Source: Bdellovibrionales bacterium (lineage in GTDB: Bacteria > Bdellovibrionota > Bdellovibrionia > Bdellovibrionales > UBA1609). From it: 64,000 nucleotides of DNA. A model generated the notes under the pieces. The model did no database searches. It worked only from the letters and a program-made list of their open reading frames with translations, and was not told the origin of the DNA. This document shows, piece after piece, positions 1 through 44,275 of this stretch (position 1 is the stretch's first letter; each line of letters opens with the position of its first letter). Both the position numbers and the translations under genes were made by a program. The stretch lies in contig CBDBBW010000007.1 in assembly GCA_965203225.1 (NCBI GenBank), positions 7,122 through 71,121 of the forward strand. Direction: 5' to 3'.

Positions 1-73
1 CCCCGGAGGCTAAAATCAGCAAGCGGGTTTTTTTGTGGGAAATATTTTGATTCAGGTCAGATGCTTTGTTCAT
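1..73 (-). CDS. 5' end of an unidentified gene running off the window (MNKASDLNQNISHKKTRLLILASG...)
   Basis: ATG on minus strand at 73-71 preceded by an AAGGGGG Shine-Dalgarno-like run. Open to the window edge and too short to identify. Confidence 0.35.
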   Translation of the reverse strand, partial: MNKASDLNQNISHKKTRLLILASG

Positions 74-390
74 GTTCACTTGCCCCCTTTTCATTGATGA
101 TATTGTAAGTTATAGCGCTTGTGAAAAGCGATCGTAAAGTCTTTATCCGCTAACCGCTCTTTGGAGTCCATTTCACCACTTTCTGCCTGATTGTTCAGAT
201 GCTTTGTTCATGTTCATTTTCCCCCTTTTTCGGGAAATATTTTGATTCAGGTCAGATGCTTTGTTCATGTTCACTTGCCACCTTTTCATTGATGATATTG
301 TAAGTGATAGCGCTTGTGAAAAGCAATCGTAAAGTCTTTACCCACTAACCGCTCTTTGGAGTCCATTTCACCACTTTCTGCCTGATTGTT
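37..390. repeat. Tandem duplication, period ~195 bp (copies 37-195 and 232-390, plus a partial unit at 196-231)
   Basis: Read directly. The unit holds the last 46 nt of the FAH-family gene (345-390 = 150-195, exact), the whole intergenic region, and the RBS, ATG and first codons of the gene at 1-73. Confidence 0.9.
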
Positions 391-1337
391 CCGAAAATAT
401 TTTCACCGGGTTTGCCTCTCATTTCCACTTCTATTTTGTCTCCCACCTTCATGAAATCGGTTTGTATATTACCTGTGTCGATTTTTTCCAACATTCTTTT
501 TTCCGCTATACAACTACAACCAACGGAAGTATCTTGGTTGGAAATAGTGCCGCTTCCAATGATAGTGCCTGCGCTCAAACTGCGAGTTTTGGCGGCATGG
601 GAAATAATCTGTCCGAAATGAAAGTGCATTTGACCGGAATCGGCCCGCCCGAAAGATTGATCGTTGAAATTAACCAACATAGGCAGATGAACGCGCCCGT
701 TTCTCCATGCCTCTCCCAACTCTTCTTTTGTCACGGCAAAAGGAGCAAAACTGCTGGAGGGTTTTCCTTGAAAAAATCCAAAACCCCTTTTTAGTTCATC
801 CGGGATAAGACCTCTGAGGGAAATATCATTTATAAGCACAAATAAAATAATATGGCTCAAAGCCTCTTCGGAAGATACACCCATATTAATATCGTCCACA
901 ATCACACCCACTTCCGCCTCGAAGTCCGTTCCATGAGAAAAATCCTCCTGTGGAATGTCATCCAAGGGGCCTAAAAAGGTGTCACTGCCGCCCTGGTAAA
1001 CAAGTGGAATGGTCTCCAATGTTTCAGGTAAAGGGGCGTTTCGAGCTTTGCGCACCAGTTTAATGTGTTGAATATAGGCGGAAGCATCTATCCATGAAAA
1101 ACTTCTGGGTAAAGGGGCAGTTAGTTTTTCAGGATTTATGGCAAAAGAAGAAGCCGCCTGTGAGTTATTTAACTGTTCATATAATGTCTCTAAAGCGGGT
1201 TTAACAACAGCCCAGTTTTCAATTGCCTCCCTCATAGAGCGGGCGATTTGTGTGGCGAACACTCCGGTTTTATTGTCTGAGGAAACCACAATCAGACTGG
1301 AGTCCCGGCAGGCGGATTTAACACTGGCTAATTTCAT
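345..1337 (-). CDS. Fumarylacetoacetate hydrolase (FAH) family protein
   Basis: 330-aa ORF. The C-terminal half shows an FAH-fold pattern (DFEAEVGVIV acidic metal-site run, GKPSSSFAPF, GTIIGSGT). Confidence 0.8.
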   Translation of the reverse strand: MKLASVKSACRDSSLIVVSSDNKTGVFATQIARSMREAIENWAVVKPALETLYEQLNNSQAASSFAINPEKLTAPLPRSFSWIDASAYIQHIKLVRKARNAPLPETLETIPLVYQGGSDTFLGPLDDIPQEDFSHGTDFEAEVGVIVDDINMGVSSEEALSHIILFVLINDISLRGLIPDELKRGFGFFQGKPSSSFAPFAVTKEELGEAWRNGRVHLPMLVNFNDQSFGRADSGQMHFHFGQIISHAAKTRSLSAGTIIGSGTISNQDTSVGCSCIAEKRMLEKIDTGNIQTDFMKVGDKIEVEMRGKPGENIFGTIRQKVVKWTPKSG

Positions 1338-1434
1338 TTTTTCCCTTTTTGTTATTATTAAAGATATTGCACATACACAATTATTTTACTTTTATCGACA
1401 ATTTTTTTATCCGCTTTAGTTAAAAAATGAGAAT

Positions 1435-2568
1435 TTATCCATGTCCCTGCATTAAAGAGGGTTCGTAAGCTATTTTCTTTTTATTTTTAAAATCAATTTG
1501 ACTGAAATAATCCTGCACCAGAGTTAAAACTTCATTTTTATTTCTGCTTTGGAAAACCATTTGACGAAAACGAGCTGAACCAGGGTAGCCGGAGGAATAC
1601 CAAGAGGAAAACTTTTTATATTGCAGTAAAAACATTTTCTCATCGTAAAAATTTTCCAAATGATATTTAAGCCGATTCAGTATATCCATATAATTTTTTT
1701 TGGTTTCATTTTGTTTATCAAATGAAAAGAAGTTTGTATTGTTATTATTGCCCTCGGAAGGAAATATGTCATATTCCATTACATTTTTTTGCAGATTGTT
1801 TTTGTCGGTTTGTTTTTTTTTATTTGAAATTTCAACGATTCTTTTTTTTACATCCTGAAAAATCCAGGGGTTTTTCAGACAACCTCGTCCAATCATCATC
1901 CCATCGCATCCGCTTTCTTTTTTTAGTTTTAAAATTTGTTTTGGATTTGTCAGATCCCCGTTGCCAATGACGGGTATGGAGCTTTGCTTTTTTACTGTTG
2001 CTATATAGGGCCAATCCGCCTGACCTGAATAAGCCTGTATTCGTGTACGGCCGTGAATGGTGAGCCAGATGATTCCTTCGTCACCAGCTATTTTCGCTAC
2101 TGCATCTGTGTTGCGGGAATGTTGATCCCAGCCTGTTCTTACTTTAATGGACACAGGGATGGAAACAGCCTGTTTTACCGTTTTAAGTATTTTTTGCAGA
2201 AAAATTAAATCTTTCAAAATAGCGGACCCCGCCCCTTTTTTAACAATTTTAGGGACGGGACATCCAAAATTGAGATCAATAAAATCCGCGCCGGATTGTT
2301 CAATCATTCCCGCCGCATCCACCAAGGCGCTTAATTCCTCACCGAAAATTTGCACACCGACAGGTCTTTGATTTTCATCAAAGGACATTAATGCTTTACT
2401 TCTTTCATTTCCCAATTGCAGGGATTTTGCAGACACCAGTTCTGTTGTAACAATACCGCAATCCATTTCCCTCATAAAAGAGCGAAAAGGGCAGTCGGTG
2501 ATCCCGGCCATAGGCGCTAAAAAAAAAGTATTGTTTCTTAATTCCTTTAGAAGATTTTCCGCATTCAT
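1435..2568 (-). CDS. dus: tRNA-dihydrouridine synthase with a ~50-aa low-complexity insertion
   Basis: Dus TIM-barrel motifs LAPMAGITD, NFGCPV, HGRT, IGNGD. An N/K-rich insert (aa ~243-292) makes it 377 aa. Confidence 0.85.
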   Translation of the reverse strand: MNAENLLKELRNNTFFLAPMAGITDCPFRSFMREMDCGIVTTELVSAKSLQLGNERSKALMSFDENQRPVGVQIFGEELSALVDAAGMIEQSGADFIDLNFGCPVPKIVKKGAGSAILKDLIFLQKILKTVKQAVSIPVSIKVRTGWDQHSRNTDAVAKIAGDEGIIWLTIHGRTRIQAYSGQADWPYIATVKKQSSIPVIGNGDLTNPKQILKLKKESGCDGMMIGRGCLKNPWIFQDVKKRIVEISNKKKQTDKNNLQKNVMEYDIFPSEGNNNNTNFFSFDKQNETKKNYMDILNRLKYHLENFYDEKMFLLQYKKFSSWYSSGYPGSARFRQMVFQSRNKNEVLTLVQDYFSQIDFKNKKKIAYEPSLMQGHG

Positions 2569-2998
2569 TTTTAAAACCTTAAAGATTTTTAATTTTATAC
2601 CATGATATTATATATGTTCAAAATATTACTTTTTTGTGTGCTTATAAAACAATCTATTTTAGTTAAATGTGATTTCCTCTTCCCAAAAAAAGGGAGGACA
2701 GAGGCTGAGGCACAAGATATGTTTGTACAGGGACAGAGGATGAGAAACAGGGTATTTCTCGTACAGAGGCTGAGGATGAGAAGCAGGTTGCAAATAGGAC
2801 AATCCTTTGGATACACTGTCAACGATGTGTCCGGTATAAAGTGTCAATGATGTGTTAGTTTGCACGAAAGAGTATAGGGCACAGGATGAGGCAAGGTGTT
2901 TTTTTGAAAATGGATCATGATGATAAAGTGGTTATACAGTCAAAAATCTCTGATAACATTGGTATTTCGGACAACAATGCAAGAGGATTATAATTTTT

Positions 2999-3075
2999 CG
3001 GGGTGTAGCGCAGTCCGGTAGCGTGTCTCGTTCGGGACGAGAAGGTCGCTGGTTCAAATCCAGTCACCCCGACCA
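2999..3075 (+). tRNA. tRNA-Pro (anticodon CGG)
   Basis: Hand-folded cloverleaf: acceptor CGGGGTG/CACCCCG, anticodon stem TCTCG/CGAGA, loop TTCGGGA, T-arm GCTGG-TTCAAAT-CCAGT. Discriminator A and CCA are encoded. Confidence 0.9.
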
Positions 3076-3181
3076 TTTCAGTAAATTGACCCTATTACGG
3101 CATTTTTTACTAACTCTACCGGCTTTGTCATAAACTCTAAGCTCAAAAAAGGGAAAGGGAATATTATTTTCAGGGTTGAGG

Positions 3182-3288
3182 AGTAAACTTATCATTAACT
3201 ATAACCATACCAGTAACTGATTGTGGGGCGGGCTTTGACGGATGTGCGCGAAGTAAATTTATCATTAACTATAACCATACCAGTAACT
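3182..3288. repeat. Direct repeat of a 37-bp unit, period 70 bp
   Basis: agtaaaYttatcattaactataaccataccagtaact occurs at 3182-3218 and 3252-3288. Confidence 0.85.
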
Positions 3289-3313
3289 CCAGCATGGCCA
3301 CGAACTTGAGCAT

Positions 3314-3387
3314 CTCCGCTTTTTAATTTTGTCAAACAAATTTCCTATATGTGAAAATTGTTCATAGCGACTAACTTAATCTGAATT
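3314..3387. repeat. Copy A of a ~75-bp direct repeat bracketing msrA
   Basis: Near-identical to 4324-4401 (gtcaaacaaatttcctatatRtgaaaattgttcatag...ctaacttaatctg). Includes the msrA stop codon. Confidence 0.85.
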
Positions 3388-4092
3388 GAACATATTACGG
3401 CATTTACGAACTAAATTCCTTGTTTTTCGTAAAGGTTGGTTTCTTCCTGAGGCGAAGCTGTAAAACCAGTAACGAACAGGATTTTTTTTATGATAACCCT
3501 GATGGTATTCTTCCGCCTTGAAAAAAGTGGAATATTGAGTGATTTCTGTTGTGACGGGCTTTTTGAATATTTCTTTTTTTGGTAATTCTTCTTTTGATTT
3601 TTCCGCCAGCTTTTTTTGTTTTTCGTCGTGATAAAAGATGACCGGTCGATATTGGGGGCCTCTGTCCACAAACTGCCCTTTGGAATCAGTGGGATCAGTA
3701 TTTTTCCAGTAAATATCCAACAGAGTTTCGTAACTGACTTCTGCCGGATAAAATGTGATTTGAACAACTTCAACATGGTCTGTCCATCCGCTGGAAACTT
3801 CTTCGTATGAGGGGTTCTGCTGTTTTCCTCCGGCAAAACCGGATATAACATTTTTCACCCCTTTTACTTTTTCGAAAGCCGCCTCCATACACCAAAAACA
3901 GCCGCCGGCAAAAGTCGCTATCTCCATTTTGGTTTCATTTGGTTTGTTTATCGGCAGAGGATCTTGATTTGGTTTAGTGTTTTCAGGTTGTTTTTCAGTC
4001 TGTGTTTCTTTTGGATTTATTTGTTCAGAAGAAAAAGAAAAAGGTAAAGGTAAAAATAAAAAAACCATCATTAAAAGAATTATTTGTTTCAT
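3376..4092 (-). CDS. msrA: Peptide-methionine (S)-S-oxide reductase with N-terminal signal peptide and extension
   Basis: GGCFWCMEA active-site motif. N-terminus MKQIILLMMVFLFLPLPFSFS looks like an export signal. Confidence 0.9.
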   Translation of the reverse strand: MKQIILLMMVFLFLPLPFSFSSEQINPKETQTEKQPENTKPNQDPLPINKPNETKMEIATFAGGCFWCMEAAFEKVKGVKNVISGFAGGKQQNPSYEEVSSGWTDHVEVVQITFYPAEVSYETLLDIYWKNTDPTDSKGQFVDRGPQYRPVIFYHDEKQKKLAEKSKEELPKKEIFKKPVTTEITQYSTFFKAEEYHQGYHKKNPVRYWFYSFASGRNQPLRKTRNLVRKCRNMFNSD

Positions 4093-4323
4093 TGCACTCT
4101 CCTTTTATGAGTTTTTACTTTGAGAGAAAATCAACAAAAAGAAAATGTACCATATATAAATCCGAGGAATCAAACGGATTCAACAAATCAGCGAAAATAT
4201 TAAAACTGGTTTATATAAGAACCCTCTACCCCTATGCCTTCAAGAAAAACAAGTCCAAAAACTTGAACTGAAAACAAAATACCAATACATAAAATAGCAA
4301 ATTTCACCTTGTCCTTAATTTAT

Positions 4324-4401
4324 CTCTGCTTTTTATTGTGTCAAACAAATTTCCTATATATGAAAATTGTTCATAGAGGCTAACTTAATCTGGTCTGAAT
4401 T
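4324..4401. repeat. Copy B of the msrA-bracketing direct repeat
   Basis: See 3314-3387. Lies upstream of msrA. Confidence 0.85.
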
Positions 4402-4594
4402 ATTTATTTTGGTTGGACCCGATGAGAGAGCTGTGTAAGCAACAACTTGAAAGAATAAAATTTGTTAATCCTGTATATACCATAGAGGATTACTAACTTG
4501 TTGGGATTGGTTTTTCACTTTTTTTAATAAACATATTTTTACTGTGTCTGCAAGGGTATAAAAAGTGAAAGTATATTGGTGTCTCTGAATTATA

Positions 4595-5965
4595 TTATAT
4601 AAAAAGGCTTAAAGGGTTTTCTATTTTTTGAATAAAAAACTTAAGCGCCCGCGCCGACACCGCACCGTCAATCAACCGATGATCGCAGGTCAGGGAAAAA
4701 TTCATTGTCTTTTTGGGTATAAAAGCGGAACCATCCCAGCAGGGTTTCACATAAATACGATACATGCCCAAAATAGCGGACTCCGGCGCATTGATAATGG
4801 GAGTGGCGTATTCTCCCCCCAAACTGCCAATATTGGTGATGGTGACAGTGCCTTCACTCATCTCCTCCGGGGAAATACTCCCCGCTCGGGCTTTCTCCGC
4901 CAGAGTTTGAATTTCAAAACTCAGCTCCACCAGGGATTTTTCATCCACATTCTTTATCACCGGAACCAACAGGCCACGGGGAGTATCCACGGCAAAACCA
5001 AAATTATAATATTTTTTAATTACAATTTCTTTTGCAAAATCGTCAATACCAGCATTCAGTTCGGGAAACTCCCGCACCGCCTGTAAAAGACACTTCATTA
5101 CAAAAGAAAGATAGGTAACTTTTATGTTCCTTTCCTTGAGCATATCTTTAACGGAATTTTTCAGTTGGTCCAATCGCTCCACTTCTGCCGACTCCAGCAA
5201 GGTAAAATGAGGAATGACCACTTTGGAGGCTTGCATTTTTTCCGCTATTTTTTTTCTCACCCCTTTAAGAGGTCTTCGTTCCTGCCGGTCCTTCGCCGGA
5301 ATGAAAAACCCGTAATTTGTATCACTTTCCCGTGCTCTATCCGCCCCACCTCTGTCCACAGTGTCCGAAGAGAAATAAGGTACATCATTCAATGTACCGG
5401 CTGAAGACCGGCCGGAATATTTCAAAACATCTTCCTTGGTAACCCGACCGGATAAGCCAGAACCCACAATTTGGCTTAAGTTAACACCCAGCTCTCTTGC
5501 CAGCCGCCGGGTAAAAGGGGTCGCCAACACAGAAGAGTCCTCCGCCGATATATCCTCATCCATTGATTGCAGTTTTGGATCCGCACTAAGAGGCTTTACC
5601 GGATGAATGGATTTTAAAACCGGGCGGACAGACTGCTCGGAAACAGAAAGTTTTGAAATATTTTCCTCTTTATTTTCCTCTTTAGAACTTGTTTCTTTAT
5701 CAAGGCTTTTTATCATTAAAAGCCTTTGCCCCACCTGAACTGTCTCCCCCTCCCTGGCTGAAAAGGATTCTACGATTCCATCAAAAGGGGAGGGCACCTC
5801 CATAGAAGCTTTGTCGGTCATCACCTCCGCCACCGGTTGGTCAATCTGAACTGAATCCCCTTCGGAAACCAGCCACTTAACCAATTCCCCCTCCGTGACC
5901 CCTTCCCCCAGTTCCGGTAGTGTTATTTCCTGACTGTCCTCGGCAGATTTGTTTTTCATAACCAT
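4595..5965 (-). CDS. 2-oxoacid dehydrogenase E2 component (dihydrolipoamide acyltransferase)
   Basis: Lipoyl-attachment motif VMTDKASMEV, a peripheral subunit-binding region, and catalytic DHRLIDG near the C-terminus. Confidence 0.9.
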   Translation of the reverse strand: MVMKNKSAEDSQEITLPELGEGVTEGELVKWLVSEGDSVQIDQPVAEVMTDKASMEVPSPFDGIVESFSAREGETVQVGQRLLMIKSLDKETSSKEENKEENISKLSVSEQSVRPVLKSIHPVKPLSADPKLQSMDEDISAEDSSVLATPFTRRLARELGVNLSQIVGSGLSGRVTKEDVLKYSGRSSAGTLNDVPYFSSDTVDRGGADRARESDTNYGFFIPAKDRQERRPLKGVRKKIAEKMQASKVVIPHFTLLESAEVERLDQLKNSVKDMLKERNIKVTYLSFVMKCLLQAVREFPELNAGIDDFAKEIVIKKYYNFGFAVDTPRGLLVPVIKNVDEKSLVELSFEIQTLAEKARAGSISPEEMSEGTVTITNIGSLGGEYATPIINAPESAILGMYRIYVKPCWDGSAFIPKKTMNFSLTCDHRLIDGAVSARALKFFIQKIENPLSLFI

Positions 5966-7163: not shown

Positions 7164-8105
7164 TCACTCCTTTTCATCCTCTGCTTTCTCTTCATCCTCT
7201 GCTTTCTCTTCATCCTCTGCTTTCTCTTTATCCTCTGCTTTCTCTTTATCCTCTGCTTTCTCTTTATCCTCTGCTTTCTCTTCTTCTTCTTCTTCTTCTT
7301 CTTCTTCTTCTTTCTCTTTCTTCATCTTAGCGACGTTTTTCAGCTTAGGCAGATGACAGTTTTCCAGAATTTTTTTAAATTCAGAAAAAGGCACGGCCCC
7401 CGGAACGGTTACACCTCCCACCAGGAAACCCGGAGTGCCGGAGAAGCCGAATTTTTCCGCTTCTTTCTTATCTGCTTCAATGATTCCTCCCACCAGGTTT
7501 AAATCCGTTTCCAATTTATTCATATCCACTTTCAAGGCTTTGGCCAATTCTTTGAAAAACTTATCTCCGTTTTTCACTTCACTTCTTCTTTTAAAAACCA
7601 TGTCATGAAAATCCTGGGCTGATTTTGAGTCCTGCATACCAATAGCTTCATAATATTCCGCCGCTTTGGCAGAACCAGGGAAAAGAGGCTTATGTTTATA
7701 AAGCACCCTCACCTGATCGGGGTATTTTTTTAAAACTTGCTTAATTGTGGGAGCCACTTTGGCGCAGTACCCACACTGAAAATCAGAGTATTCCACAATA
7801 GTGATAGGCGCGTCTTTGTTCCCAAAATATACACGGGAGTCTTTCATTTCCGGCTTTTTAGGATTTTTGCACTCAGCTTCTCGAGCGGCGATTTCTTTTT
7901 CCTGCTGTTTCTTTCTTCTGTTTACCATATACTCGCGCTGAGCTTCCGCCAAAGCATCCATATATAATACAGGATTACTCTTGATGGATTCCGTAATAAT
8001 TTCAGGATTATCCTTCAGCAGTTTCTTTAAAAAAGCCGGGCCACAGGAGGCTAAAAACGGCACGATACACATTATGAACAATAATTGAAAGTTTGTTTTT
8101 TTCAT
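7164..8105 (-). CDS. DsbA-family thiol:disulfide oxidoreductase lipoprotein with a long acidic repeat tail
   Basis: Lipobox LASC in the signal peptide and CXXC site FQCGYC. The C-terminal ~60 aa is poly-E plus (EKAEDK/E)n. Confidence 0.8.
   Translation of the reverse strand: MKKTNFQLLFIMCIVPFLASCGPAFLKKLLKDNPEIITESIKSNPVLYMDALAEAQREYMVNRRKKQQEKEIAAREAECKNPKKPEMKDSRVYFGNKDAPITIVEYSDFQCGYCAKVAPTIKQVLKKYPDQVRVLYKHKPLFPGSAKAAEYYEAIGMQDSKSAQDFHDMVFKRRSEVKNGDKFFKELAKALKVDMNKLETDLNLVGGIIEADKKEAEKFGFSGTPGFLVGGVTVPGAVPFSEFKKILENCHLPKLKNVAKMKKEKEEEEEEEEEEEKAEDKEKAEDKEKAEDKEKAEDEEKAEDEEKAEDEKE
7173..7312. repeat. Coding repeats: six 18-bp units, then a (TTC/GAA)n run of about a dozen copies
   Basis: tt[c/t]atcctctgctttctc x6, followed by ttcttcttc... 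Encodes the acidic tail of the DsbA-like protein. Confidence 0.9.
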
Positions 8106-9354: not shown

Positions 9355-9467
9355 CTACCCCCCCCCTCTTTACACCTCAAAAAACCGCATCAGGTTGTTT
9401 CATAGCCGCTGTAGACAGACATGGCTACCCCCCCTCTTTACACACCTCAAAAAACCGCAACAGGGTT
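9355..9467. repeat. Direct duplication (~41 bp, period ~71 bp) of the 5' end of the next gene
   Basis: tacccccc(c)ctctttacac(ac)ctcaaaaaaccgcaWcagg occurs upstream of, and again at, codons 2-15 of the ORF starting at 9421. Confidence 0.85.
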
Positions 9468-12205: not shown

Positions 12206-12225
12206 TACACAAAATTGATTCAAAA

Positions 12226-12462: not shown

Positions 12463-12507
12463 AGGGAAGAGACAGCATTATCTTCCAAACAGAACCGAGT
12501 ATCCGCT

Positions 12508-31666: not shown

Positions 31667-31742
31667 CAGATACATAAGTATATTTTTTTAAAAAACTATA
31701 AATACTTCTTTTTATTCGACTTGAAGCAAAACTTGATCAGAA

Positions 31743-33308
31743 TCATATGGTTTTTAAGAAAGCCTGAGCCTGAGCATCACCTTGTTTAGCCGCTTTTTCA
31801 AACAACTCTATTCCTCGCTGTATATCTTGCTCCACTCCTTCTCCCTTACAATACATCGCAGCTAAGAAAGTCTGAGCTGGAGCAAAACCTTTTTCAGCCG
31901 CTTTTTCAAACAACTCTCTTGCTCGATGTCTATCCTGCTCCACTCCTTTTCCATCAAAATACATCACAGCTAAGGCATGCTGAGCTGGAGCAAAACCTTG
32001 TTTAGCTGCTTTTTCATACCACTCTCTTGCTCGATTTATATCTTGCTCCACTCCCTCTCCCTTATAATACATCACAGCTAAGTTACTCTGAGCTGGAGCA
32101 TCACCTTGTTTAGCTGCTTTTTCAAACAACTCTATTCCTCGATTTATATCTTGCTCCACTCCTTCTCCCTCATAATACATCACAGCTAAGGCATGCTGAG
32201 CTGGAGCATCACCTTGTTTAGCCGCTTTTTCATACCACTCTATTCCTCGATTTATATCTTGCTCCACTCCTTCTCCCTCATAATACATCACAGCTAAGGC
32301 ATGCTGAGCCAGAGCAAAACCTTGTTTAGCCGCTTTTTCAAACAACTCTATTCCTCGCTGTATATCTTGCTCCACTCCTTCTCCCTTACAATACATCACA
32401 GCTAAGGCATGCTGAGCCAGAGCAAAACCTTTTTCAGCCGCTTTTTCAAACAACTCTATTCCTCGCTGTATATCTTGCTTCACTCCTTCTCCCTTACAAT
32501 ACATCACAGCTAAGGCATGCTGAGCTGGAGCAACATCTTGTTTAGCCGCTTTTTCATACCACTCTCTTGCTCGATGTATATCTTGCTCCACTCCTTCTCC
32601 ATTAGAATATATATCAGCTAAGTTATACTGAGCTGGAGCAAAACCTCGTTTAGCCGCTTTTTCATACCACTTTATTCCTCGATGTCTATCTTGCTCCACT
32701 CCTTTTCCATCAAAATATATCACAGCTAAGGCATGCTGAGCTGGAGCAACACCTTGTTTAGCCGCTTTTTCAAACAACTCTATTCCTCGATGTATATCTT
32801 GCTCCACTCCTTCTCCCTTAGAATACATCTGAGCTAAGTTATACTGAGCTGGAGCAAAACCTCGTTTAGCCGCTTTTTCATACCACTCTCTTGCTCGATG
32901 TATATCTTGCTCCACTCCTTCTCCATTAGAATATATATCAGCTAAGTTAAACTGAGCTGGAGCAAAACCTTGTTTAGCCGCTTTTTCCAACCACTCTATT
33001 CCTCGATGTCTATCTTGCTCCCCTCCTTCTCCCAGATAATACATCGCAGCTAAGGCATGCTGAGCTGGAGCAACACCTTTTTCAGCCGCTTTTTCAAACA
33101 ACTTTCTTTTTCTTGCTCTACGATGTCTATCTTGCTCCCCTCCTTTACTGTGGATTAAGTTACAGAGACTCACTCCATTATAATGTATCAAAGCAGTGTT
33201 ATACTGATACTGAGCATAACGTTGTTTAGCCAATCTTTTAGAGTTGCACAGAAAAAGCTTAACAGCTCTTAACAAGGATTTTAATGCGCTTGGTTTTTTT
33301 ATCATCAT
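31743..33308 (-). CDS. Sel1-like repeat (SLR) protein, 12 full 36-aa repeats plus degenerate flanking repeats
   Basis: Repeating APAQxxLAxMYxxGEGVEQDxxRxxEWYEKAAKQG consensus. DNA repeats of 108 bp are near-identical. Confidence 0.9.
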   Translation of the reverse strand: MMIKKPSALKSLLRAVKLFLCNSKRLAKQRYAQYQYNTALIHYNGVSLCNLIHSKGGEQDRHRRARKRKLFEKAAEKGVAPAQHALAAMYYLGEGGEQDRHRGIEWLEKAAKQGFAPAQFNLADIYSNGEGVEQDIHRAREWYEKAAKRGFAPAQYNLAQMYSKGEGVEQDIHRGIELFEKAAKQGVAPAQHALAVIYFDGKGVEQDRHRGIKWYEKAAKRGFAPAQYNLADIYSNGEGVEQDIHRAREWYEKAAKQDVAPAQHALAVMYCKGEGVKQDIQRGIELFEKAAEKGFALAQHALAVMYCKGEGVEQDIQRGIELFEKAAKQGFALAQHALAVMYYEGEGVEQDINRGIEWYEKAAKQGDAPAQHALAVMYYEGEGVEQDINRGIELFEKAAKQGDAPAQSNLAVMYYKGEGVEQDINRAREWYEKAAKQGFAPAQHALAVMYFDGKGVEQDRHRARELFEKAAEKGFAPAQTFLAAMYCKGEGVEQDIQRGIELFEKAAKQGDAQAQAFLKTI

Positions 33309-33416
33309 TACCTCCGATTCTTATTCAAACTATGATTTGTTTTTACCATAATTTGCTAATTCATTCCAGCTATTTATAAAATTATGAAAAAATTATACAC
33401 CACTGTTTAAACTTTA

Positions 33417-33552
33417 TGGGAATCCGTTTTTTATCTTTGTTCAACTCCGGCTTTAAATGAATAGTTCCTGTTAAACGAGGCAGAGCAGGTCCATAAACAT
33501 CTCCGTCCAGCAGACCGATTTTTAAACCCAGATTGGATAAAGCGGATGACAT
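33417..33552 (-). pseudogene. Fragment of an Mrp/ApbC-type Fe-S cluster carrier ATPase gene
   Basis: Translates to MSSALSNLGLKIGLLDGDVYGPALPRLTG..., matching the xNLAxALAxxGxKVGLLDADIYGPS region. The P-loop and C-terminal parts are absent. Confidence 0.5.
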
Positions 33553-33636
33553 GTTTAAAAGAATAAAAGAGGTATATTATGTCTTATTTAAAAAAAATCT
33601 TGTTTTTTGGGAGCAAATTTAATCTCGGTTTCTGCA

Positions 33637-34307
33637 TTAGCTGTTCCCTTCTTGAAAGCAGAAAGAGATGGAAAGCATCTCTAAAGGTTTTTTCAATGAT
33701 TTATATTTTTCGGTAATCTTATACTTAACGGTTTTACGAGCACCTTCAAAATAAATAAGATTATTGTCTTTTAAAAACCTTATATAATTTTCTATTGTTC
33801 TTAATGTAATACCTTCTTTTTTTGAAAAAGAAACAGAAGAAAACTCCTCTTGTTTATCTATTACATTTAATAATTTTAATAAATTGTCTCTTTTTTTCCT
33901 TTTACTCCGAAATTTATACCGAAATTTTTATCTTCTGAAATAAACTGTTCAGTAAGTAAAAGCTTGCGAAAAAATGTCACAGTTGTAAAGCCATCAAATT
34001 CAAACTTTATCGGACGCAATCCTTCTGCTTTAACTAAATCTCTCATCTTTTTAATCCCTATTCCCATTCTTTCAATGTATCCAGAGCCGTCCATCAAATC
34101 TGCTAAAAGCAGGTTGGGGCGAACACTTTTTTTTCCAAATTTTTCTTTAGACAGTCCTGCGGGTAATCCGCCAAAATTAGAAATTTCTACTCTATCGTCA
34201 TAAATCTCAACAGTCACAGATGTTCCGTCCTCCAAATAATTTGTATGAATGACAGCATGGAAACGAAAAACCTCTCTGCAGTTCACAGGCCAGCCTTGGA
34301 CATACAC
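33637..34307 (-). pseudogene. 5'-truncated, frameshifted gene for an AlbA_2/HATPase_c_4-type putative regulator ('RecG-like C-terminal' family)
   Basis: AVIHTNYLEDGTSVTVEIYDDRVEISNFGGLP...YIERMGIGIKKM matches the HATPase_c_4 core. A wHTH-like tail (ITLRTIENYIRFLKDNNLIYFEG) continues in another frame after the T7/A7 run at 33891-33897. The N-terminal domain is missing. Confidence 0.6.
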
Positions 34308-34485
34308 ACAAACCCACAGTGACTCAAAGGTATGCTAAGACTATCGCTATCTTATTTGTTCTGTTGCAGGCGGAGATGAGTTTTTAGTTTTTTTGAGTTC
34401 AGTCATTTTATATTTTGAGATGGAAAAGAATTTTTTAGATTGTGTTTGCATGAGAAAAACGGATATGATAACTTCTAAAAAAGAA

Positions 34486-35082
34486 ATGAAATATTTTATA
34501 TTTATTTTATTTTTCTCTTTTGCGGCACTTATAGCATCTTCAGCCTTCTCAAAGCCTTATTTGTATCCCGGCTATCTTAATGATGGGGTTTCACCGTCCT
34601 GGGGGATCACCGCTTATAAGTGGTCTGTTTCTATTGACAAAAAAAAATCAAATGTGTTTTTTGAGCCATTCTTATATATAACCTGTCATCCGGCGCAAAC
34701 ACCACAAGAAAATTCAAAAATAGAGATAAGCCTCTCCTTTAAAGCGCATCCTAGAGATCCTAAGCCCTCTTATGCCTATGGACCAATAGGGTGGTTGAAA
34801 CTGTGGGGAATTCTTGAATCAAAATTTATAGACAGGCCTGTCAAGGCAATTTCAAACAATGTGTCTATCGGCAGTAATTTGGTAAGATTGGCTTTGTCAG
34901 TATTAGTAAACGAAAGTTATCGGATGATTTTGGATCGATCTCCTGATACTAGAAAATGGCTTAGCGGCTTTTTGCAGTCAAAACAATTAAAAGTTCAAGG
35001 GGAAGGAATAGATATTACAGTCTTATTTTACCACCAAGACCTTGATAAATGGCTCAAAGATACTCTAAACAGATGTCCTTAA
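34486..35082 (+). CDS. Hypothetical secreted protein
   Basis: Signal peptide MKYFIFILFFSFAALIASSAFS. No recognisable domain. The tracked ORF begins upstream at 34393. Confidence 0.55.
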   Translation: MKYFIFILFFSFAALIASSAFSKPYLYPGYLNDGVSPSWGITAYKWSVSIDKKKSNVFFEPFLYITCHPAQTPQENSKIEISLSFKAHPRDPKPSYAYGPIGWLKLWGILESKFIDRPVKAISNNVSIGSNLVRLALSVLVNESYRMILDRSPDTRKWLSGFLQSKQLKVQGEGIDITVLFYHQDLDKWLKDTLNRCP

Positions 35083-35182
35083 CACAAATATATCCAGCAA
35101 TTCGCTTAAGAAAGAAGTTAAACAAAACTTCATTGCTGGTGAACTGTCTATAAAAAAATAGCTCTCAAAGCTGACTCCTTGC

Positions 35183-35341
35183 TTATCTAAGTCTCAACCA
35201 AAAGATTGGAAAAGCTTTTAAATGAGAAAGTTTGTTTGAAACAGAAGGGGTAAAAGGATATTTATGACTGGATAAAAAAAAGCCAGCTGAAACAGCCGGT
35301 GTTGCATAAAAAACCAAAATTAGTTTTAATATAAAAATCAT
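35183..35341 (-). pseudogene. Truncated paralog (first ~35 codons conserved) of the secreted protein gene at 35804-36508
   Basis: Same GGGAGGAG RBS and MIFILKLILVFYATPAVSA signal peptide as the full copy. Diverges and stops after 52 codons. Confidence 0.5.
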
Positions 35342-35514
35342 AATAACTCCTCCCAGATTGTTTAGGGCTTTATAATACACAATAATAAGTTTAGTATAGA
35401 TAATTTGTCTGAGTCGGAAAATTTTACCAATTTTTCACATAGCGGCTTATTTAATGAACCTTTTTAGTTTTCTTCCAAAGATTTTTTTTTGGCAGGCAAA
35501 AGCCTTACAATTGA
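35239..35514. repeat. Copy 1 of a ~276-bp direct repeat
   Basis: Near-identical to 36406-36682. Covers the promoter/RBS and 5' coding region of the secreted-protein gene family. Confidence 0.9.
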
Positions 35515-35803
35515 AAAAATACAAAAATAAAAAAGGCATTATTTCTGTTAAAAGTAAAGTGGGTTTTAGAGGGCTTCTTCTTAAAAAGAAATTTTTGCCA
35601 AAAATTCAATTGGATATAACAGCTAGTGAAATCTTGGTTTTAAAACCTGTGAAACGGAGAGTGCATCACCCTTACTCAGATGATTTTAAACAGTGGACAC
35701 TAGGCAGAAATGGGATTGTAATATATTTTACTTTCTTTTTATTAGCTTTCTTTCTAAATTATCTAAACAGTCAGTACAGTCTAAATGCAAGCTTCCATTT
35801 ACA

Positions 35804-36508
35804 CTAATGCCTTTTTCTCATTCTATTTCTCTGATATTTTTCATCATAGAGGACACCACTACTCAGAGATAGGATTTTAGTATATTTTACTTTCTTTTTA
35901 GGTAGCTTTCTGCTTACTAAAGCATCTAAACAATCATCACAGCCTAAGTGCAATTTTCCATTTACACCAATGCCTTTTTCACATTCTCCGGTTTGGATTG
36001 TCTCTGATATTTTCTCGCTCATATATTCATCTCTTTCACCATCATCAATACTACCAGGTTTATCAACCGCAAAAATAGACCACTTGTTTTTTATAGCTGT
36101 ATTGATTAAAAAATAATGAGAGCGACCTTCATGGAAGCCGTTGAGCCATTTATTAAGTTTAGTAGAATTATCTGTGTATTCCAAATAGAGGCATTTTTTA
36201 TGATTCGGATATATTTCTGAAAACTTCTTTATTAAATTAAAATAAATATTTTCTTGATCGTAAGAATTTTGTCTTCCTACTTCGTTTCCGCCTCTTTCCC
36301 CTCTTCTTGTTTCAAGCAGATAAGCAGAGACAATATGAGTTTCCCCTACAAATAGAATATCCACTCTTTTAATTAGGGTATTTTGACGATATTCTAAGAT
36401 GGGCAAAACAGAAGGGGTAAAAGGATATTTATGACTGGATAAAAAAAAGTCAGCTGAAACAGCCGGTGTTGCATAAAAAACCAAAATTAGTTTTAATATA
36501 AAAATCAT
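35804..36508 (-). CDS. Hypothetical secreted protein (possible ChaN/Tiki-like fold, very tentative)
   Basis: Strong RBS GGGAGGAG 5 nt before ATG 36508, plus a signal peptide. The ILFVGETH motif is reminiscent of GExH in ChaN-like proteins. The 3' end is tandemly duplicated (35722-35850 vs 35882-36015), so the stop position is uncertain. Confidence 0.6.
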   Translation of the reverse strand: MIFILKLILVFYATPAVSADFFLSSHKYPFTPSVLPILEYRQNTLIKRVDILFVGETHIVSAYLLETRRGERGGNEVGRQNSYDQENIYFNLIKKFSEIYPNHKKCLYLEYTDNSTKLNKWLNGFHEGRSHYFLINTAIKNKWSIFAVDKPGSIDDGERDEYMSEKISETIQTGECEKGIGVNGKLHLGCDDCLDALVSRKLPKKKVKYTKILSLSSGVLYDEKYQRNRMRKRH

Positions 36509-36682
36509 AATAACTCCTCCCAGATTGTTTAGGGCTTTATAATACACAATAATAAGTTTTAGTATAGATAATTTGTCTGAGTCGGAAAATTTTACCAATT
36601 TTTCACATAGCGGCTTATTTAATGAACCTTTTTAGTTTTCTCCCATAAGATTTTTTTTGGCCGGCAAAAGCCTTACAATTGA
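36406..36682. repeat. Copy 2 of the ~276-bp direct repeat
   Basis: See 35239-35514. Confidence 0.9.
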
Positions 36683-36962
36683 CTGGATGAAAACAAAGCC
36701 AACAACTCAATTCCAAAAGAAAAAAAGTTTTATTCAGGAGTTAAAAATTTTAAAAACAGTTTTAAACTGGTATAAAAATTTTCTGAATGAAGACTTTAAT
36801 GTGCCTATAAAAGAAAAGCATAAACAGCTTTTCATTCTTAGACTTAAAACCCTTAGGGGGCCGGATTATTTTATTCAGCCTGAAGATGTTAAAAAAATGG
36901 GTGGAAAAGATTTGGTGCCCGCGGAGGGAGTCTGTTTGAAAAACAAAAAAAATTTTAAATAA
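36657..36962 (+). pseudogene. Possible N-terminal remnant of a tyrosine recombinase/integrase (weak call)
   Basis: 101-aa ORF abutting the right att-like repeat. ELKILKTVLNWYKNFLNEDFNVPI ... RGPDYFIQPEDVKKM loosely resembles an integrase SAM-like N-domain and linker. There is no catalytic domain. Confidence 0.3.
36912..36928. repeat. Right copy of the exact 17-bp direct repeat (att-like)
   Basis: ttggtgcccgcggaggg, identical to 25570-25586. Confidence 0.7.
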
Positions 36963-36967
36963 CTTCC

Positions 36968-37825: not shown

Positions 37826-39046
37826 ATGAAATGTTTATTATTGGAAGGCATTCATACTACGGCCGGAGAGAAGTTAAACACTCAAGGGCTACAGGTGGAA
37901 TTGGCCAAGTCCGATCTCAGCGGGGAAGAGCTTTTAAAAAAAAGCTGTACTGCTTTGGGTGTCCGCTCCCGCACCTTCATCACAAAGGAGACCCTAAAAG
38001 CCCTTTGCCCCTCTCTCAGGGTGATTGGAGCTTTTTGCATCGGTACGGATCAAATTGATTTGAAGACAGCCAGTCAAATGGGAGTGCCGGTTTTTAACGC
38101 CCCTTATGGAAATACAAGAAGCGTCGCGGAGTTGGTGATTTCACATATCATTGCCCTTTCCCGTCAAAGCTACAGCTTTAATCAGATAATGCACCAGGGA
38201 ATATGGAATAAAACCGCTAAAGGAAGCCGGGAAGTCAGGGGAAAAACACTGGGTATTGTGGGATACGGGCATATAGGCACACAAGTCAGCATACTGGCGG
38301 AATCCATAGGAATGAAAGTTCTTTATTTTGATATTATTGAAACCCTGCCCATAGGAAACGCCCAACCGGTAAAAAACCTCAAGGAGCTAATGAGCCTTTC
38401 TGACTTTGTGACATTACATATCCCCAAAACCACCGCGACAACAAACATGATACAGAAAAAACAGCTAAAATGGATGAAAAAAGGCTCTTTCCTCATTAAT
38501 ACCAGCCGTGGCACGGTGGTCAGCTTGGAGGATCTGAAGAATGCACTTTTGGAAAACGAATTGGCTGGCGCCGCACTGGATGTGTTCGCAGAAGAACCGC
38601 AAAAAAAACAAAGCATTTTTACCTGCCCCCTACAAGGGATGAAACAGGTGATCCTCACTCCCCATGTGGCCGGCAGTACGGAGGAAGCACAGGAAAATAT
38701 CGCCCGACAGGTCAGCTCCTCTATCACAAAATATCTTTTTCACGGAATATCCGAGGGCGCAGTCAACTTTCCTGTGCTAAATCCCCCCCCTTTGAGTTCT
38801 ATGAGCAAATGCCAAAGGTTAGTGAATATACATAAAAATATTCCCGGGGTGTTAGGGAATATCAATGGTTTGGTATCCCGGCTGAAAATCAATATTCAAA
38901 GCCAGTATCTGGCAACCAAAGAGAATATAGGCTATTTAATTATGGATATGGAACATAAAAACACAAACCAGCTTTTTAAGGCCATTGACTCGTTGGATAC
39001 TTCCATTCGCACTTATACTCTGCCGGCTGAAGGCAAATCCATATAA
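37826..39046 (+). CDS. serA: D-3-phosphoglycerate dehydrogenase with C-terminal ACT domain
   Basis: NAD-binding GIVGYGHIGTQV, catalytic-region TPHVAGST, ~80-aa C-terminal regulatory domain. ATG 37826 is preferred over the upstream TTG. Confidence 0.9.
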   Translation: MKCLLLEGIHTTAGEKLNTQGLQVELAKSDLSGEELLKKSCTALGVRSRTFITKETLKALCPSLRVIGAFCIGTDQIDLKTASQMGVPVFNAPYGNTRSVAELVISHIIALSRQSYSFNQIMHQGIWNKTAKGSREVRGKTLGIVGYGHIGTQVSILAESIGMKVLYFDIIETLPIGNAQPVKNLKELMSLSDFVTLHIPKTTATTNMIQKKQLKWMKKGSFLINTSRGTVVSLEDLKNALLENELAGAALDVFAEEPQKKQSIFTCPLQGMKQVILTPHVAGSTEEAQENIARQVSSSITKYLFHGISEGAVNFPVLNPPPLSSMSKCQRLVNIHKNIPGVLGNINGLVSRLKINIQSQYLATKENIGYLIMDMEHKNTNQLFKAIDSLDTSIRTYTLPAEGKSI

Positions 39047-39132
39047 CCGGGCCAAAATAAAAAACCTCTCACCGGCTGAAGGCAACATCAAATCCATATA
39101 ACCGGGCCAAAATAAAAAACCTCTTGCCGGCT
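39022..39132. repeat. Tandem duplication (49/54-bp units) of the serA 3' end, filling the serA/recombinase convergent spacer
   Basis: ccggctgaaggcaa(catca)atccatataaccgggccaaaataaaaaacctct x2, plus a third partial start (tgccggct). Confidence 0.9.
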
Positions 39133-40200
39133 TTACTTTTCAGAACTTCCAAAAGGGTGGCGTGTCTCCAGGAGCCGGCTCAAATGAGATATATGCAGAT
39201 GAGTGTATTTTTGAGTGGCAGAAAGAGATTCATGTCCCAGTAATTCCTGAAGGGATCGCAAATCAGCACCGCTATTCAATAGGTGCGTGGCAAAACTATG
39301 CCTCAAAACATGAGGGCTTAAAGGTTTGTTCAAGCCGGCTTTCCGCCCCCAGTATCTAACTCTGTCATAAGCTTTTCTAAGAGAAAGCCGGGGCTTAAAT
39401 ACAAAACCAACCTGACCCTGTAACGGCCTTAACTGGGTCAGAACCACCTTTGGTAAAGCGCATAACCTCTGCTTTCCCCCTTTTCCCTTGATCCGTAAAG
39501 TGTGTTTTACAAAATCCACCTGCTCCCATCTCAATAAACAAGCTTCACTGATCCTCAAGCCTCCTCCATAAAGAAGCAAAATTAAAATCAAATCCCTTCG
39601 ATCCTCTGCTTTTTTACTGACTTTCAAGCTTTTTTGAATTGTCCGCACCAGACAAAGAGCCTCATCCACAGACAGATAATGAGGCAGGCGGTAAGGAAGC
39701 CGGGGAAGTTTGATCCCCGCTTGTAAATCTCTGCTTATCAAATCCTCCATAAACAGCCATTTAAGAAAAGATTTCACACAGGCGTATTTACGATTTCGGG
39801 TGGCCGGGGAAAAAGAAACCCATTTTTTAAAACTCAATTTAATGCGCTTTTCCAACAAATGATCCAAAAAAGGGAGACTGACTGGATATGAAACACTTAC
39901 CTTTGAAAAATCCGGCTCATCCCGGAGCAGATCAGAGAAGCTGTTTTTATACTTTGTCGAAAAAAGAGACAAGAAGACAGGTGTATCAGAAAGTAAAAAC
40001 TGTCTTAAATCTATACAATAAGATTTAATGGTATTAAATGAATATAATTTATTAAATTCCAAATATTTTAAATAGTTATAAGTATATTGTTTAATTTTTA
40101 TACAATGTATAAATACTTTATAATCATGTTTTTTTATTTTTTTTGTAAAAAAATTACATCTTTTCATTGAAAAATTTTCAAGACTTTGATATAGAAACAA
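39133..40200 (-). CDS. Site-specific tyrosine recombinase, XerC/XerD-like
   Basis: C-terminal HVLRHSFATHLLNSGADLRSLQELLGHESLSATQKYTH signature. The N-terminal region is AT-rich and divergent, so the start is uncertain. Confidence 0.85.
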   Translation of the reverse strand: MFLYQSLENFSMKRCNFFTKKIKKHDYKVFIHCIKIKQYTYNYLKYLEFNKLYSFNTIKSYCIDLRQFLLSDTPVFLSLFSTKYKNSFSDLLRDEPDFSKVSVSYPVSLPFLDHLLEKRIKLSFKKWVSFSPATRNRKYACVKSFLKWLFMEDLISRDLQAGIKLPRLPYRLPHYLSVDEALCLVRTIQKSLKVSKKAEDRRDLILILLLYGGGLRISEACLLRWEQVDFVKHTLRIKGKGGKQRLCALPKVVLTQLRPLQGQVGFVFKPRLSLRKAYDRVRYWGRKAGLNKPLSPHVLRHSFATHLLNSGADLRSLQELLGHESLSATQKYTHLHISHLSRLLETRHPFGSSEK

Positions 40201-41278: not shown

Positions 41279-41766
41279 GGACGAATTTTACACCTGCGGA
41301 TGGGACTGAGCAGACACCCTTCACCTTCCATCCGTGGAATGAATGTCGAACAAATAAGCTCTATAATCCGCAAAAGAAATAAAATCCCCGGGAGCAGACG
41401 ATGCAAAGGCCGCCTCCCCCTTTGTGGAACTGATCCAAAGGGCGCCTGGCGGGGTTAAATTTTATCAAGCAGACGATGCAGAGTTTGGCCTCCTCACTTT
41501 GTGAAATTTTCTAATCCACAACAAAAGAAGAAAATCCCCGGAAGCGGATAGCACAAAAATAAGAGAGAACAATTCCCATGAATTGGAGAGTTTATTTTTA
41601 ATTGAAGTTTTCATCCGCTTAAAAACTTTCCGACACAGCAATAGCAGTAAATCAGAAAAACACACAGCCAATCAGATAAAGACATTGCTTCAATTCTAAG
41701 TGGATAAAATATTAAACTAGTTTAAAAATACGAGATTCTCTTATCAATATTGGTTTTAAAAAATAG

Positions 41767-42618: not shown

Positions 42619-43647
42619 TTACACCTTTTCATAATTCAACCCTCCGCTTATACGCGGATCCACTTTTAAATAAAGAACATCCACCAGAAGATTTACCATA
42701 ATAATAATTAAGGCAATTAATAAAATGCCTCCTTGTAAGACAGGATAATCCCTGGCCAGTACTGCCTGCACGAGCCACTTTCCCACACCCGGCCAGGAAA
42801 ACACGGTCTCCGTCAAAACCGCACCAGCCAATAGAGAACCCATCATTAAACCTGTCACTGTAACAATGGAAATCAAGGCATTCCTGAAAGCATGGACAAA
42901 ATAAACCCGATAAAACCCCAGACCTTTTCCCTTGGCTGTACGAATAAAATCCTCTTTAAACACCTCTAACAAACTAAAGCGGGTCATGCGGGTAATATAG
43001 GCTAAAGGAATCGTCCCCAAAGTTAACACAGGCAATATCAAATGTTTTAACCCACTTTTAAAAGCCGACCATTTTTCCGGGCCGAACCAGACATCCACCA
43101 GCATTAAACCCGTAAACAATTCCACTTCATATAAAACATCCATCCGGCCGGAAACGGGAGTCAGGCCCAGATAAACAGAAAACAAAAGAATTAAAATCAA
43201 GCCCCACCAGAAAACCGACATGGAATAACCAAGCAAAGAAAAACCGGTGCCAACAAAATCCCAAAAGGAGTTCACCTTATAGGCTGATAAAAAACCCAAA
43301 GGAATGCCTACAAACAAAGCAAATAGCAAAGCAAAAAAAGAAAGCTCTACGGTGGCAGGGAAGTGATGCTTAAACTCCTCCCACACCGGTTGACCGGAAA
43401 TAAGAGAATGGCCAAGGTCTCCTGTCATTCCATGAGAGATAAAAAGAAAATATTGCTCATACCAGGGACGATCCAAACCCCACTTGGCCATAAGCTCCTT
43501 TTTTAACTTCGGGTCCACCCCTCTTTCCCCGAGGAGATGGTCCACTGAATCCCCTGGAATCAAACGAACAATAAAAAAAACTAAAAGAGTGCAAATCAGT
43601 AAAGTGGGAACAATGAACAGAAGACGATGATACAAAAAATAAAGCAT
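42619..43647 (-). CDS. dppB: Peptide ABC transporter permease (DppB/OppB type)
   Basis: N-terminal RLIPGD motif and permease core. Abuts dppC with no gap. Confidence 0.85.
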   Translation of the reverse strand: MLYFLYHRLLFIVPTLLICTLLVFFIVRLIPGDSVDHLLGERGVDPKLKKELMAKWGLDRPWYEQYFLFISHGMTGDLGHSLISGQPVWEEFKHHFPATVELSFFALLFALFVGIPLGFLSAYKVNSFWDFVGTGFSLLGYSMSVFWWGLILILLFSVYLGLTPVSGRMDVLYEVELFTGLMLVDVWFGPEKWSAFKSGLKHLILPVLTLGTIPLAYITRMTRFSLLEVFKEDFIRTAKGKGLGFYRVYFVHAFRNALISIVTVTGLMMGSLLAGAVLTETVFSWPGVGKWLVQAVLARDYPVLQGGILLIALIIIMVNLLVDVLYLKVDPRISGGLNYEKV

Positions 43648-43826
43648 AAAAACCGGTCTTCCTTACAAGGATCTATAGGGTGGTAGCGGAGGAATTATCA
43701 ATGACGCAAAAGAGCGATTATTACTCTATGTAAAGTTAAATTAATTGGATTATACATTTTACCATCTGTCAACTCGGCTTGCGCCGCTATTCTCTGAATG
43801 ATAAAATATTCCTTTTACAAGGAAAA

Positions 43827-44021
43827 ATGAGCATTAAACAAAAAACTTCAAAAGACTTTTTAATATTTATTATTATTATTGTCATAATATTGTTTGTGAT
43901 ATTTTTATATATTAATTGCAATACAACAAGAATTATAAGAGCGCCCGGACTGGTTCCAAATCCCGATGGGTGTAAAATAACATTTGAAAACGGGGAGTGC
44001 GCCGAGCCTGGTTCTTTTTGA
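43827..44021 (+). CDS. Small hypothetical single-TM protein (64 aa)
   Basis: AAGGA RBS 4 nt before the ATG. One poly-Ile TM segment and a Cys-containing C-terminus. Lies on the opposite strand between dppA and dppB. Confidence 0.35.
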   Translation: MSIKQKTSKDFLIFIIIIVIILFVIFLYINCNTTRIIRAPGLVPNPDGCKITFENGECAEPGSF

Positions 44022-44031
44022 TTGCATTGCT

Positions 44032-44275
44032 CTGTTCCGAATAAATACTCAGCAATTTAATTACTATTTTCAATAACTAAAAAACTCTTTGAACCGGAAT
44101 AAACTTTATAAATAATCCGCTGTTCAATATAAATACTCAGCAATTTAATTACTATTTTCAATAACTAAAAAACTCTTTGAACCGGAATAAACTTTATAAA
44201 TAATCCGCTGTTTAATTACTATTTTCAATAACTAAAAAACTCTTTGAACCGGAATAAACTTTATAAATAATCCGC
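44032..44275. repeat. Tandem repeat (units ~89, 89 and 66 bp) immediately downstream of dppA
   Basis: Each unit ends ...aataatccg and the next begins ctgtt, copying the junction at the dppA stop codon (ctgttcaattttta...). Confidence 0.9.

Follow-up and report, generated by a model that had tools for sequence, protein, structure and literature searches.

Why does a single 64-kb stretch of bacterial DNA carry so many short direct duplications, and why do so many of them hold the first or last codons of a gene? The stretch in question (contig CBDBBW010000007.1, positions 7,122 to 71,121, 64,000 nucleotides [nt] in all; hereafter the window) comes from a Bdellovibrionales bacterium whose metagenome-derived genome is a single contig of ~1.27 Mb. 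The window has a GC content of ~40%, a coding share of 83.7% and a median spacer of 132 nt. Its nearest genomes are metagenome-assembled genomes of uncultured 'Bdellovibrionales'/'Oligoflexia' (1.3-2.3 Mb), and the next-best biotin carboxylase in a protein search was 75% identical. A preliminary description of this DNA had listed 13 loci at which near-identical copies, tandem or closely spaced, have one end in a gene terminus. The loci were re-called with Tandem Repeats Finder (TRF), a direct-repeat search and self-BLAST of the window; all 13 exist, with coordinates essentially as first described, and self-BLAST added a fourteenth, a 278-nt direct repeat involving the 5' end of a secreted-protein open reading frame (ORF) (Table 1). 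Genes were named by Pfam (FAH, msrA, ribD, BCCP, biotin carboxylase, serA and the family-5 solute-binding protein, dppA), and the identities given earlier match these assignments.

By self-BLAST, the window holds 15 near-tandem loci per 64 kb, 11 non-coding and 4 in-frame coding, i.e. 2.3 per 10 kb. Under identical criteria, 149 unrelated bacterial loci used as controls (2,134,762 bp) gave 29, a count which includes paralogues and one CRISPR array, or 0.136 per 10 kb. The density is ~17 times that of the controls (Poisson P = 4e-14), which bears out the earlier remark that it is unusual. TRF, run for comparison with the settings of Riegler et al. (2/7/7/50/500), returned 21 rows covering 3,262 nt (5.1% of the window), 1.3 kb of which belongs to a Sel1 coding array. 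Non-coding DNA totals 10.4 kb, of which ~1.7 kb consists of recognisable extra copies, as summed from their coordinates. Identity between copies spans 83-100% and several arrays are nested or of mixed period (72/94, 88/67), indicating successive events of different ages. The duplications had been called recent; copies are near-identical at some loci, but the spread of identities gives relative age only.

No unit shows similarity to a unit of another locus (self-BLAST of the window arrays, E <= 1e-3), and each duplication is therefore local rather than a copy of a dispersed element. The repeats are genuine, recurrent and locus-specific local duplications of differing ages. The same result bears on the proposal that they are scars of mobile elements or site-specific recombination, namely an att duplication made at serA by the neighbouring recombinase, or else a MITE-, REP- or MIRU-like dispersed intergenic element. 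A gene of the Phage_integrase family (39133-40200) adjoins the serA duplication, 4-5 loci fall in a 12.4-kb low-GC island and a 72-nt direct repeat flanks msrA; against this, units are unrelated across loci and most loci sit in conserved core operons, and we regard such an origin as extremely unlikely. An att-site duplication at serA was rejected, as the copies are adjacent rather than flanking and two relatives, L161 and L162 (ERZ25070748 contig_8), show the recombinase in synteny with serA. Since this gene (minus strand) keeps its place beside serA and the sigma-54 activator gene in relatives, it belongs to the resident chromosome; the tyrosine recombinase it encodes is possibly Xer-like, not an island integrase. 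A dispersed repeat family (MIRU, REP, MITE) was rejected on the cross-locus search. MIRUs are 40-100-nt tandem units in operon spacers which touch the flanking stop and start codons, but they form one dispersed related family, whereas the units here are unrelated. CRISPR arrays were rejected because the repeats differ between loci; in the full tandem arrays the 'spacers' are themselves repeated (as in the ribD units), and the loci with unique spacers (3182, 9355, 16399 and 24860) each contain just two copies of their repeat. As for known structured RNAs, Rfam hits were confined to RNase P RNA and two tRNAs, none over a repeat.

Microhomology at the unit junctions, which the preliminary description had proposed as a check, is present as runs of 5-19 nt at five loci: GTGGA following accC unit 3, CCGGCT at serA, CTGTTC on the left border of the dppA array, an imperfect run of ~9 nt (AAATATTTT) at the FAH junctions and 19 nt (CAAGGGATTTCAACTGAAC) at ribD. 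The chance probability of a run of at least 5 nt is ~1e-3 or less per junction. The ribD match scored 38, as compared with at most 24 after shuffling, and each unit of that array carries a 19-22-nt motif. The array had been described as a copy of the ribD 3' end; a 19-nt piece of the ribD 3' region has indeed been copied, but the array itself does not abut ribD.

The repeats are also placed with respect to the reading frame. The periods had been stated not to be multiples of 3, which does not hold: 6 of 15 non-coding periods are (195, 72, 33, 72, 159 and 1167), near the one-third share expected by chance. The seven arrays whose periods are not multiples of 3 (70, 70, 94, 100, 86, 55 and 88/67) all avoid the interiors of live genes, with a joint probability of ~4e-5 as calculated from random-placement fractions, whereas all four coding arrays found by TRF (18, 36, 108 and 30 nt) are in frame. 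The sole out-of-frame array in former coding DNA (86 nt) lies inside a decayed NYN pseudogene. The duplication tendency shows inside genes only where the reading frame is kept. That placement follows the frame is strong evidence for an in-vivo, selection-filtered origin as opposed to one during assembly. The metagenomic, single-contig source does leave room for the view that an assembler, or collapsed strain variants, made the duplications. We consider this very unlikely, given that i) the copies diverge by substitutions and indels to unequal degrees and include nested structures, ii) an assembler is blind to the frame that out-of-frame and coding arrays respect, iii) independent assemblies of close relatives behave alike at other sites, and iv) distant relatives (L007, L008, L010 and L011) and unrelated genomes whose records follow the same naming convention (L060, L062, L068 and L072) are without the pattern.

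Whether gene ends are the target or a by-product was assessed against a null in which units of the observed sizes were laid at every window position and those wholly inside one gene were discarded. Under this null, the share of units touching a gene end grows with unit length (27%, 49%, 60% and 79% for units of 33, 70, 100 and 195 nt, respectively), and contact is expected at 7.9 of 13 loci, as against ~9 of 14 observed. Many loci do carry gene ends, as had been claimed, and relic 5' or 3' ends are present for FAH, the gene starting at 73, accC, BCCP, serA, dppA and the secreted ORF, but their share is that of random placement and points to no special property of gene termini. Since the null matches the observed share, the pattern is a survivorship effect: gene ends are copied incidentally and are not the target, and 'gene ends copied into spacers' is to be read as survivorship, not mechanism. 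Three of the loci originally listed depart from the described structure, in that no contact with a gene end could be demonstrated at 3182-3288 or 41373-41550 and 25050-25223 lies within the NYN pseudogene. Genes had also been thought to be split by the process, and no live gene in the window could be shown to be.

The alternative is that duplications favour transcription or translation boundaries, through terminator hairpins or stalled transcription-replication encounters. Array edges do lie within a few bases of the stop codons of the recombinase gene (39133), nhaA (in L161), the glyoxalase gene (in L162) and CT (in L002); perfect palindromes occur 0-2 nt from the ends of the accC (18250-18271), FAH (393-404) and dppA (44285-44301) arrays; and every ribD unit includes one terminator-like hairpin on the minus strand (12423-12406, 12329-12312 and 12255-12238, from a consensus scan). 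With random placement already yielding nearly the observed contacts, a hairpin-boundary test that is marginal and three loci without a live gene end, targeting of gene ends appears unlikely.

Comparison with related genomes, also proposed in the preliminary description, shows that the trait extends beyond the window. The CT-ECH-accC-BCCP-...-ribD/rpsI synteny is conserved in relatives, and three spacers are longer in the window than in syntenic relatives, in agreement with the suggestion that the process enlarges intergenic regions: ECH-accC (333 nt vs 39-176 nt), ribD-rpsI (302 nt vs 47 nt in L161) and serA-recombinase (86 nt vs 51 nt in L161 and an overlap in L162). At each, the excess is about the size of the extra units. 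The accC-BCCP spacer is 59 nt in the window and 14-36 nt in 5 of 8 relatives measured, with exceptions of 82 nt in L010 and ~330-340 nt in L002 and L007, as well as an overlap in L161. The eight relatives nearest to the window, with an accC identity of 67% or more, contain 18 loci in 145 kb (1.24 per 10 kb, P = 5e-12), whereas five more distant ones (accC 53-61%) contain 2 arrays in 107 kb (0.19 per 10 kb), which is the control level. Since close relatives are enriched and distant ones are not, the trait belongs to a subclade. The array-rich relatives include L001 (OZ241967.1), L002 (CBDETO010000005.1), L006 (OZ241921.1) and L162; OZ245336.1, OZ241911.1, OZ251448.1 and OZ242172.1 are array-poor. 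The relatives' arrays sit elsewhere, namely between CT and ECH (L002, L004), after nhaA (L161) and after the glyoxalase gene (L162), and often start at a stop codon.

The duplicated units do multiply signals, as the preliminary description had anticipated for promoters and terminators. Besides the three ribD hairpins, a consensus scan detected one promoter-like site (TTCACA-17-TATCAT) per FAH unit, at 320-292 and 125-97, and start codons were copied with their upstream context. On the minus strand, decoy ATGs with this context intact stand at 268 and 211, ahead of the gene starting at 73, and at 18107 and 18208 in the accC array. The decoy at 18107 opens a 45-aa ORF which passes the real accC ATG (18007) in another frame and ends at 17970; judging from this arrangement, it could depress accC translation or couple to it. 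Such sites might suggest that extra promoters, terminators or decoy starts were selected to tune the expression of neighbouring genes, and the hairpins of ribD, the two promoter-like sites upstream of the gene at 73 and the intact pairs of ribosome-binding site (RBS) and ATG, such as that at 18107, can all be cited for it. Similar repeats, however, occur in inert DNA (the NYN pseudogene and 41373-41550), the units are mixed in content, some holding 5' ends, some 3' ends and some spacer alone, placement agrees with the neutral null and the relatives carry their arrays in different spacers of the same operon. Adaptive amplification seems as improbable to us as gene-end targeting. For annotation, decoy starts, duplicated terminators and gene-end relics are liable to mislead gene callers into predicting spurious hypothetical proteins. 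Spurious ORFs of 118 and 106 aa cross arrays at 12192-12548 (minus strand) and 17940-18260 (plus strand), respectively.

Taken with the duplications themselves, the microhomologies make it probable that microhomology-mediated replication slippage, acting in a reduced-genome lineage, explains the loci. Slippage or template switching between direct repeats of 5-19 nt, tens to hundreds of bases apart, would produce copies of 33-195 nt, with two duplications of ~1 kb as exceptions in size, and some arrays would then grow or shed parts by further slippage or by unequal exchange between units. Selection would remove events wholly within a live gene unless they are in frame, while events that have no more than one of their ends within a given gene would spare all genes and persist. 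Through this persistence, gene starts and ends, RBS and promoter- or terminator-like signals would accumulate in spacers. Slipped misalignment of this kind, independent of RecA, is known in E. coli, where it uses short junction homologies, depends strongly on proximity and yields both duplications and deletions. The 5-19-nt microhomologies and 33-195-nt units found here resemble it, although the process is defined experimentally in E. coli and here is inferred from sequence. We infer likewise that the rate or tolerance of such events would be raised in a subclade of uncultured Bdellovibrionales/Oligoflexia-like bacteria, with a raised rate or drift as the presumptive cause.

Several points weigh against slippage as a full and general account. 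Four loci (3182, 9355, 16399 and 24860) have an 'A-spacer-A' form of ~1.5 copies, which would call for a pair of switches, or for a deletion after an initial duplication, rather than one simple slippage. Hairpins would be expected at array boundaries if slippage were set off by stalled forks; one was found at 2 of 24 boundaries against a null of 1.4% (P about 0.045), a marginal value that leaves the hairpins a weak link. The figures come from one 64-kb window, so that a genome-wide rate is an extrapolation. No conspecific was found: exact-protein look-ups with rpsI, asd, accC and P0001 were empty, and a scan of metagenome contigs with exact 25-mers and with proteins gave nothing closer than 50%.

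The preliminary description had likened the repeats to those of Ehrlichia ruminantium, which is the nearest precedent, and the likeness holds in part. That species has 201 TRF arrays making up 6.3% of its genome with the 2/7/7/50/500 settings (PMC3287509, Table 4), as compared with 5.1% of the window, 1.3 kb of the latter being Sel1. Its non-coding repeats are described as having 'actively variable copy number' and as a source of 'genome size plasticity', and its coding ratio is about 63-65% (PMC10710844; PMC7343930). Both are small genomes in which numerous locus-specific repeats, with long periods of tens to hundreds of nt, enlarge the spacers, and in both the repeats are mostly non-coding (here 11 of 15 BLAST-defined loci). 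Gene-end relics lie beside the repeats here, and Collins et al. are said to have described, in 2005, truncated gene fragments adjoining those of E. ruminantium. The two differ in phylum (Anaplasmataceae as against a Bdellovibrionales/Oligoflexia-like lineage), in GC content (about 27.5-29% vs ~40%) and in coding share, which at 84% in the window is not low as it is in E. ruminantium. They also differ in copy number, with a mean of 4.8 there and mostly 2-3 here, at smaller periods; and the E. ruminantium system is defined by strain-to-strain changes in copy number, whereas ours is known from one assembly.

A second precedent is offered by Wolbachia, whose VNTR-141 and VNTR-105 are intergenic repeats of 105-141 nt with hairpins in a 1.27-Mb genome, attributed to slipped-strand mispairing; wMel has 93 TRF arrays per 1.27 Mb, or 1.6% (PMC3287509). 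These share with the window intergenic position, tandem arrangement, hairpins and small genome size, but the density of the window is several-fold above that of wMel, and the Wolbachia loci are defined by allelic copy-number variation whereas the present ones are known from one assembly. The Wolbachia VNTRs are a milder version of the same behaviour. By analogy, the window would be best explained by a process like that of E. ruminantium and Wolbachia operating in a new phylum. A stronger version, that a small-genome Bdellovibrionales/Oligoflexia-like subclade has independently gained a genome-wide, heritable rise in microhomology-mediated tandem duplication, is put forward only tentatively and is perhaps rather less likely than not to be correct. 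If it were true, this would be the second, phylogenetically independent reduced genome with spacers inflated by tandem duplication, and contrasting the repair and replication genes of array-rich and array-poor lineages, and of Anaplasmataceae, could reveal the genetic cause. The array-poor sister lineages provide a natural contrast for finding the cause of the array-rich state.

Table 1. Repeat loci of the window and the genes or spacers they involve (positions in nt; strand in brackets).
Feature	Position	Repeat structure	Content and context
FAH locus	37-196 / 232-391	160 nt, 96.9% identical, E 3e-75, offset 195 nt	Last ~15 codons of FAH (345-1337, -), spacer, RBS and first ~13 codons of next gene
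FAH locus, third copy	195-229	35 nt	Start of the neighbour gene
Gene next to FAH	73 (-)		Real ATG
tRNA-Pro/msrA spacer repeat	3182-3218 / 3252-3288	37 nt, offset 70 nt, 97.3%	Local small ORF without family match
msrA-flanking repeat, left copy	3312-3383	72 nt; 91.7% identical to right copy, E 8e-21, 1010 nt apart	msrA stop and 2 codons (msrA 3376-4092, -)
msrA-flanking repeat, right copy	4322-4392		Spacer upstream of msrA
asd/orf9421 repeat	9355-9464	40 nt, offset 70 nt; BLAST 9360-9394 / 9428-9464, 92%	One copy just past asd stop (9346), the other codons 2-15 of orf9421
rpsI/ribD array	12224-12466	Three units, 72 and 94 nt, 94-96%	Convergent spacer
ribD 19-nt motif	12545-12563	19 nt	Within ribD 3' region; identical to motif bounding downstream array units
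BCCP locus	16399-16416 / 16432-16449	Exact 18-mer, 33 nt apart	One copy in codons 5-10, the other directly upstream of ATG (16430, -)
accC array	17940-18248	100 nt x 3; units 1 and 2 identical, unit 3 ~92%	Biotin carboxylase (ATG 18007, -), codons 1-22, and 32 nt upstream
NYN upstream repeat	24860-24896 / 24932-24969	37 nt, offset 72 nt, 92%	Start codon (ATG 24965) of decayed NYN-domain pseudogene, with sequence upstream of it
NYN internal repeat	25050-25223	86 nt x 2, 96.6%	Inside decayed NYN pseudogene
Secreted-protein repeat, left copy	35239-35514	278 nt; 97.8% identical to right copy, E 1e-136, 1167 nt apart	Relic promoter region, signal peptide and first codons; relic ATG 35341, 52-aa ORF
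Secreted-protein repeat, right copy	36406-36682		Live 5' end of ORF (ATG 36508, -)
Secreted-protein 3' duplication	35698-35824 / 35857-35987	Offset 159 nt, 83%	One copy coding, the other straddling the stop codon (35804)
serA array	39023-39132	Units 49 and 55 nt (55 nt x 2, 95%) and terminal CCGGCT	Last 7 serA codons, stop and short spacer to convergent recombinase stop (39133)
Degenerate repeats	41373-41550	Offsets ~75-150 nt	488-nt spacer after sigma-54 activator gene
dppA array	44041-44295	Three units, 88, 67 and 67+ nt; two 88-nt units identical	Last 5 codons and stop of dppA (44279-45937, -) and ~60 nt downstream

At the BCCP locus, one of the two weakest, ~4e-4 such 18-mer pairs are expected by chance according to our own estimate. 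The degenerate repeats at 41373-41550, the other weak locus, involve no gene end; they align with a score of 35 against a shuffle maximum of 25 and are old. Deleting one 86-nt unit does not restore the NYN ORF, the gene being decayed in all frames. No family support was obtained for the small ORFs near 3182-3288 and at 2602-2850, 35454-35807, 36657-36962 and 43779-44021. Offsets of 67-72 nt recur at five loci of the window (3182, 9355, 12233, 24860 and 44128), and those of relatives are alike, at 70 nt in L001, 62-63 nt in L002 and 66 nt in L006 and L162; the clustering at 67-72 nt may reflect a preferred slippage distance.

Among the coding arrays, the 108-nt one (~87% DNA identity) supplies the 12 repeats of a Sel1-repeat protein (31743-33308, minus strand) and is a recently expanded coding array. 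Those at 7173-7328, 21639-21766 and 47222-47390 (18, 36 and 30 nt) encode charged low-complexity tails, one of which is carried by a DsbA-like protein (7164-8105).

In L162, short ORFs abound in the region 1821-5001; one is a 66-aa biotinyl-domain gene, the sole BCCP-like ORF of the locus, which is displaced from accC. In addition, a copy of the nhaA upstream region lies 9 kb from the gene (3803-3869 vs 13043-13107). These features suggest wider rearrangement in the clade.

The low-GC (29-35%) island is a 12.4-kb insertion (24553-36967) between nhaA and an acyltransferase gene, which are adjacent in L161 and L162. Besides the decayed NYN pseudogene, it contains a Type III restriction-modification pair (Mod 26163-27791, Res 27792-30428), the 12-repeat Sel1 protein, a RecG-C-like fragment and the secreted ORF, and 4-5 of the repeat loci fall inside it. 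Its edge gives the sole long-range match within the window by self-BLAST, a 38-nt inverted match of 89% identity between 24895-24932 and a gene junction 36 kb off (60908-60945). A bacterial RNase P class A RNA is located at 22515-22926 (plus strand), beside tRNA-Arg(TCT).

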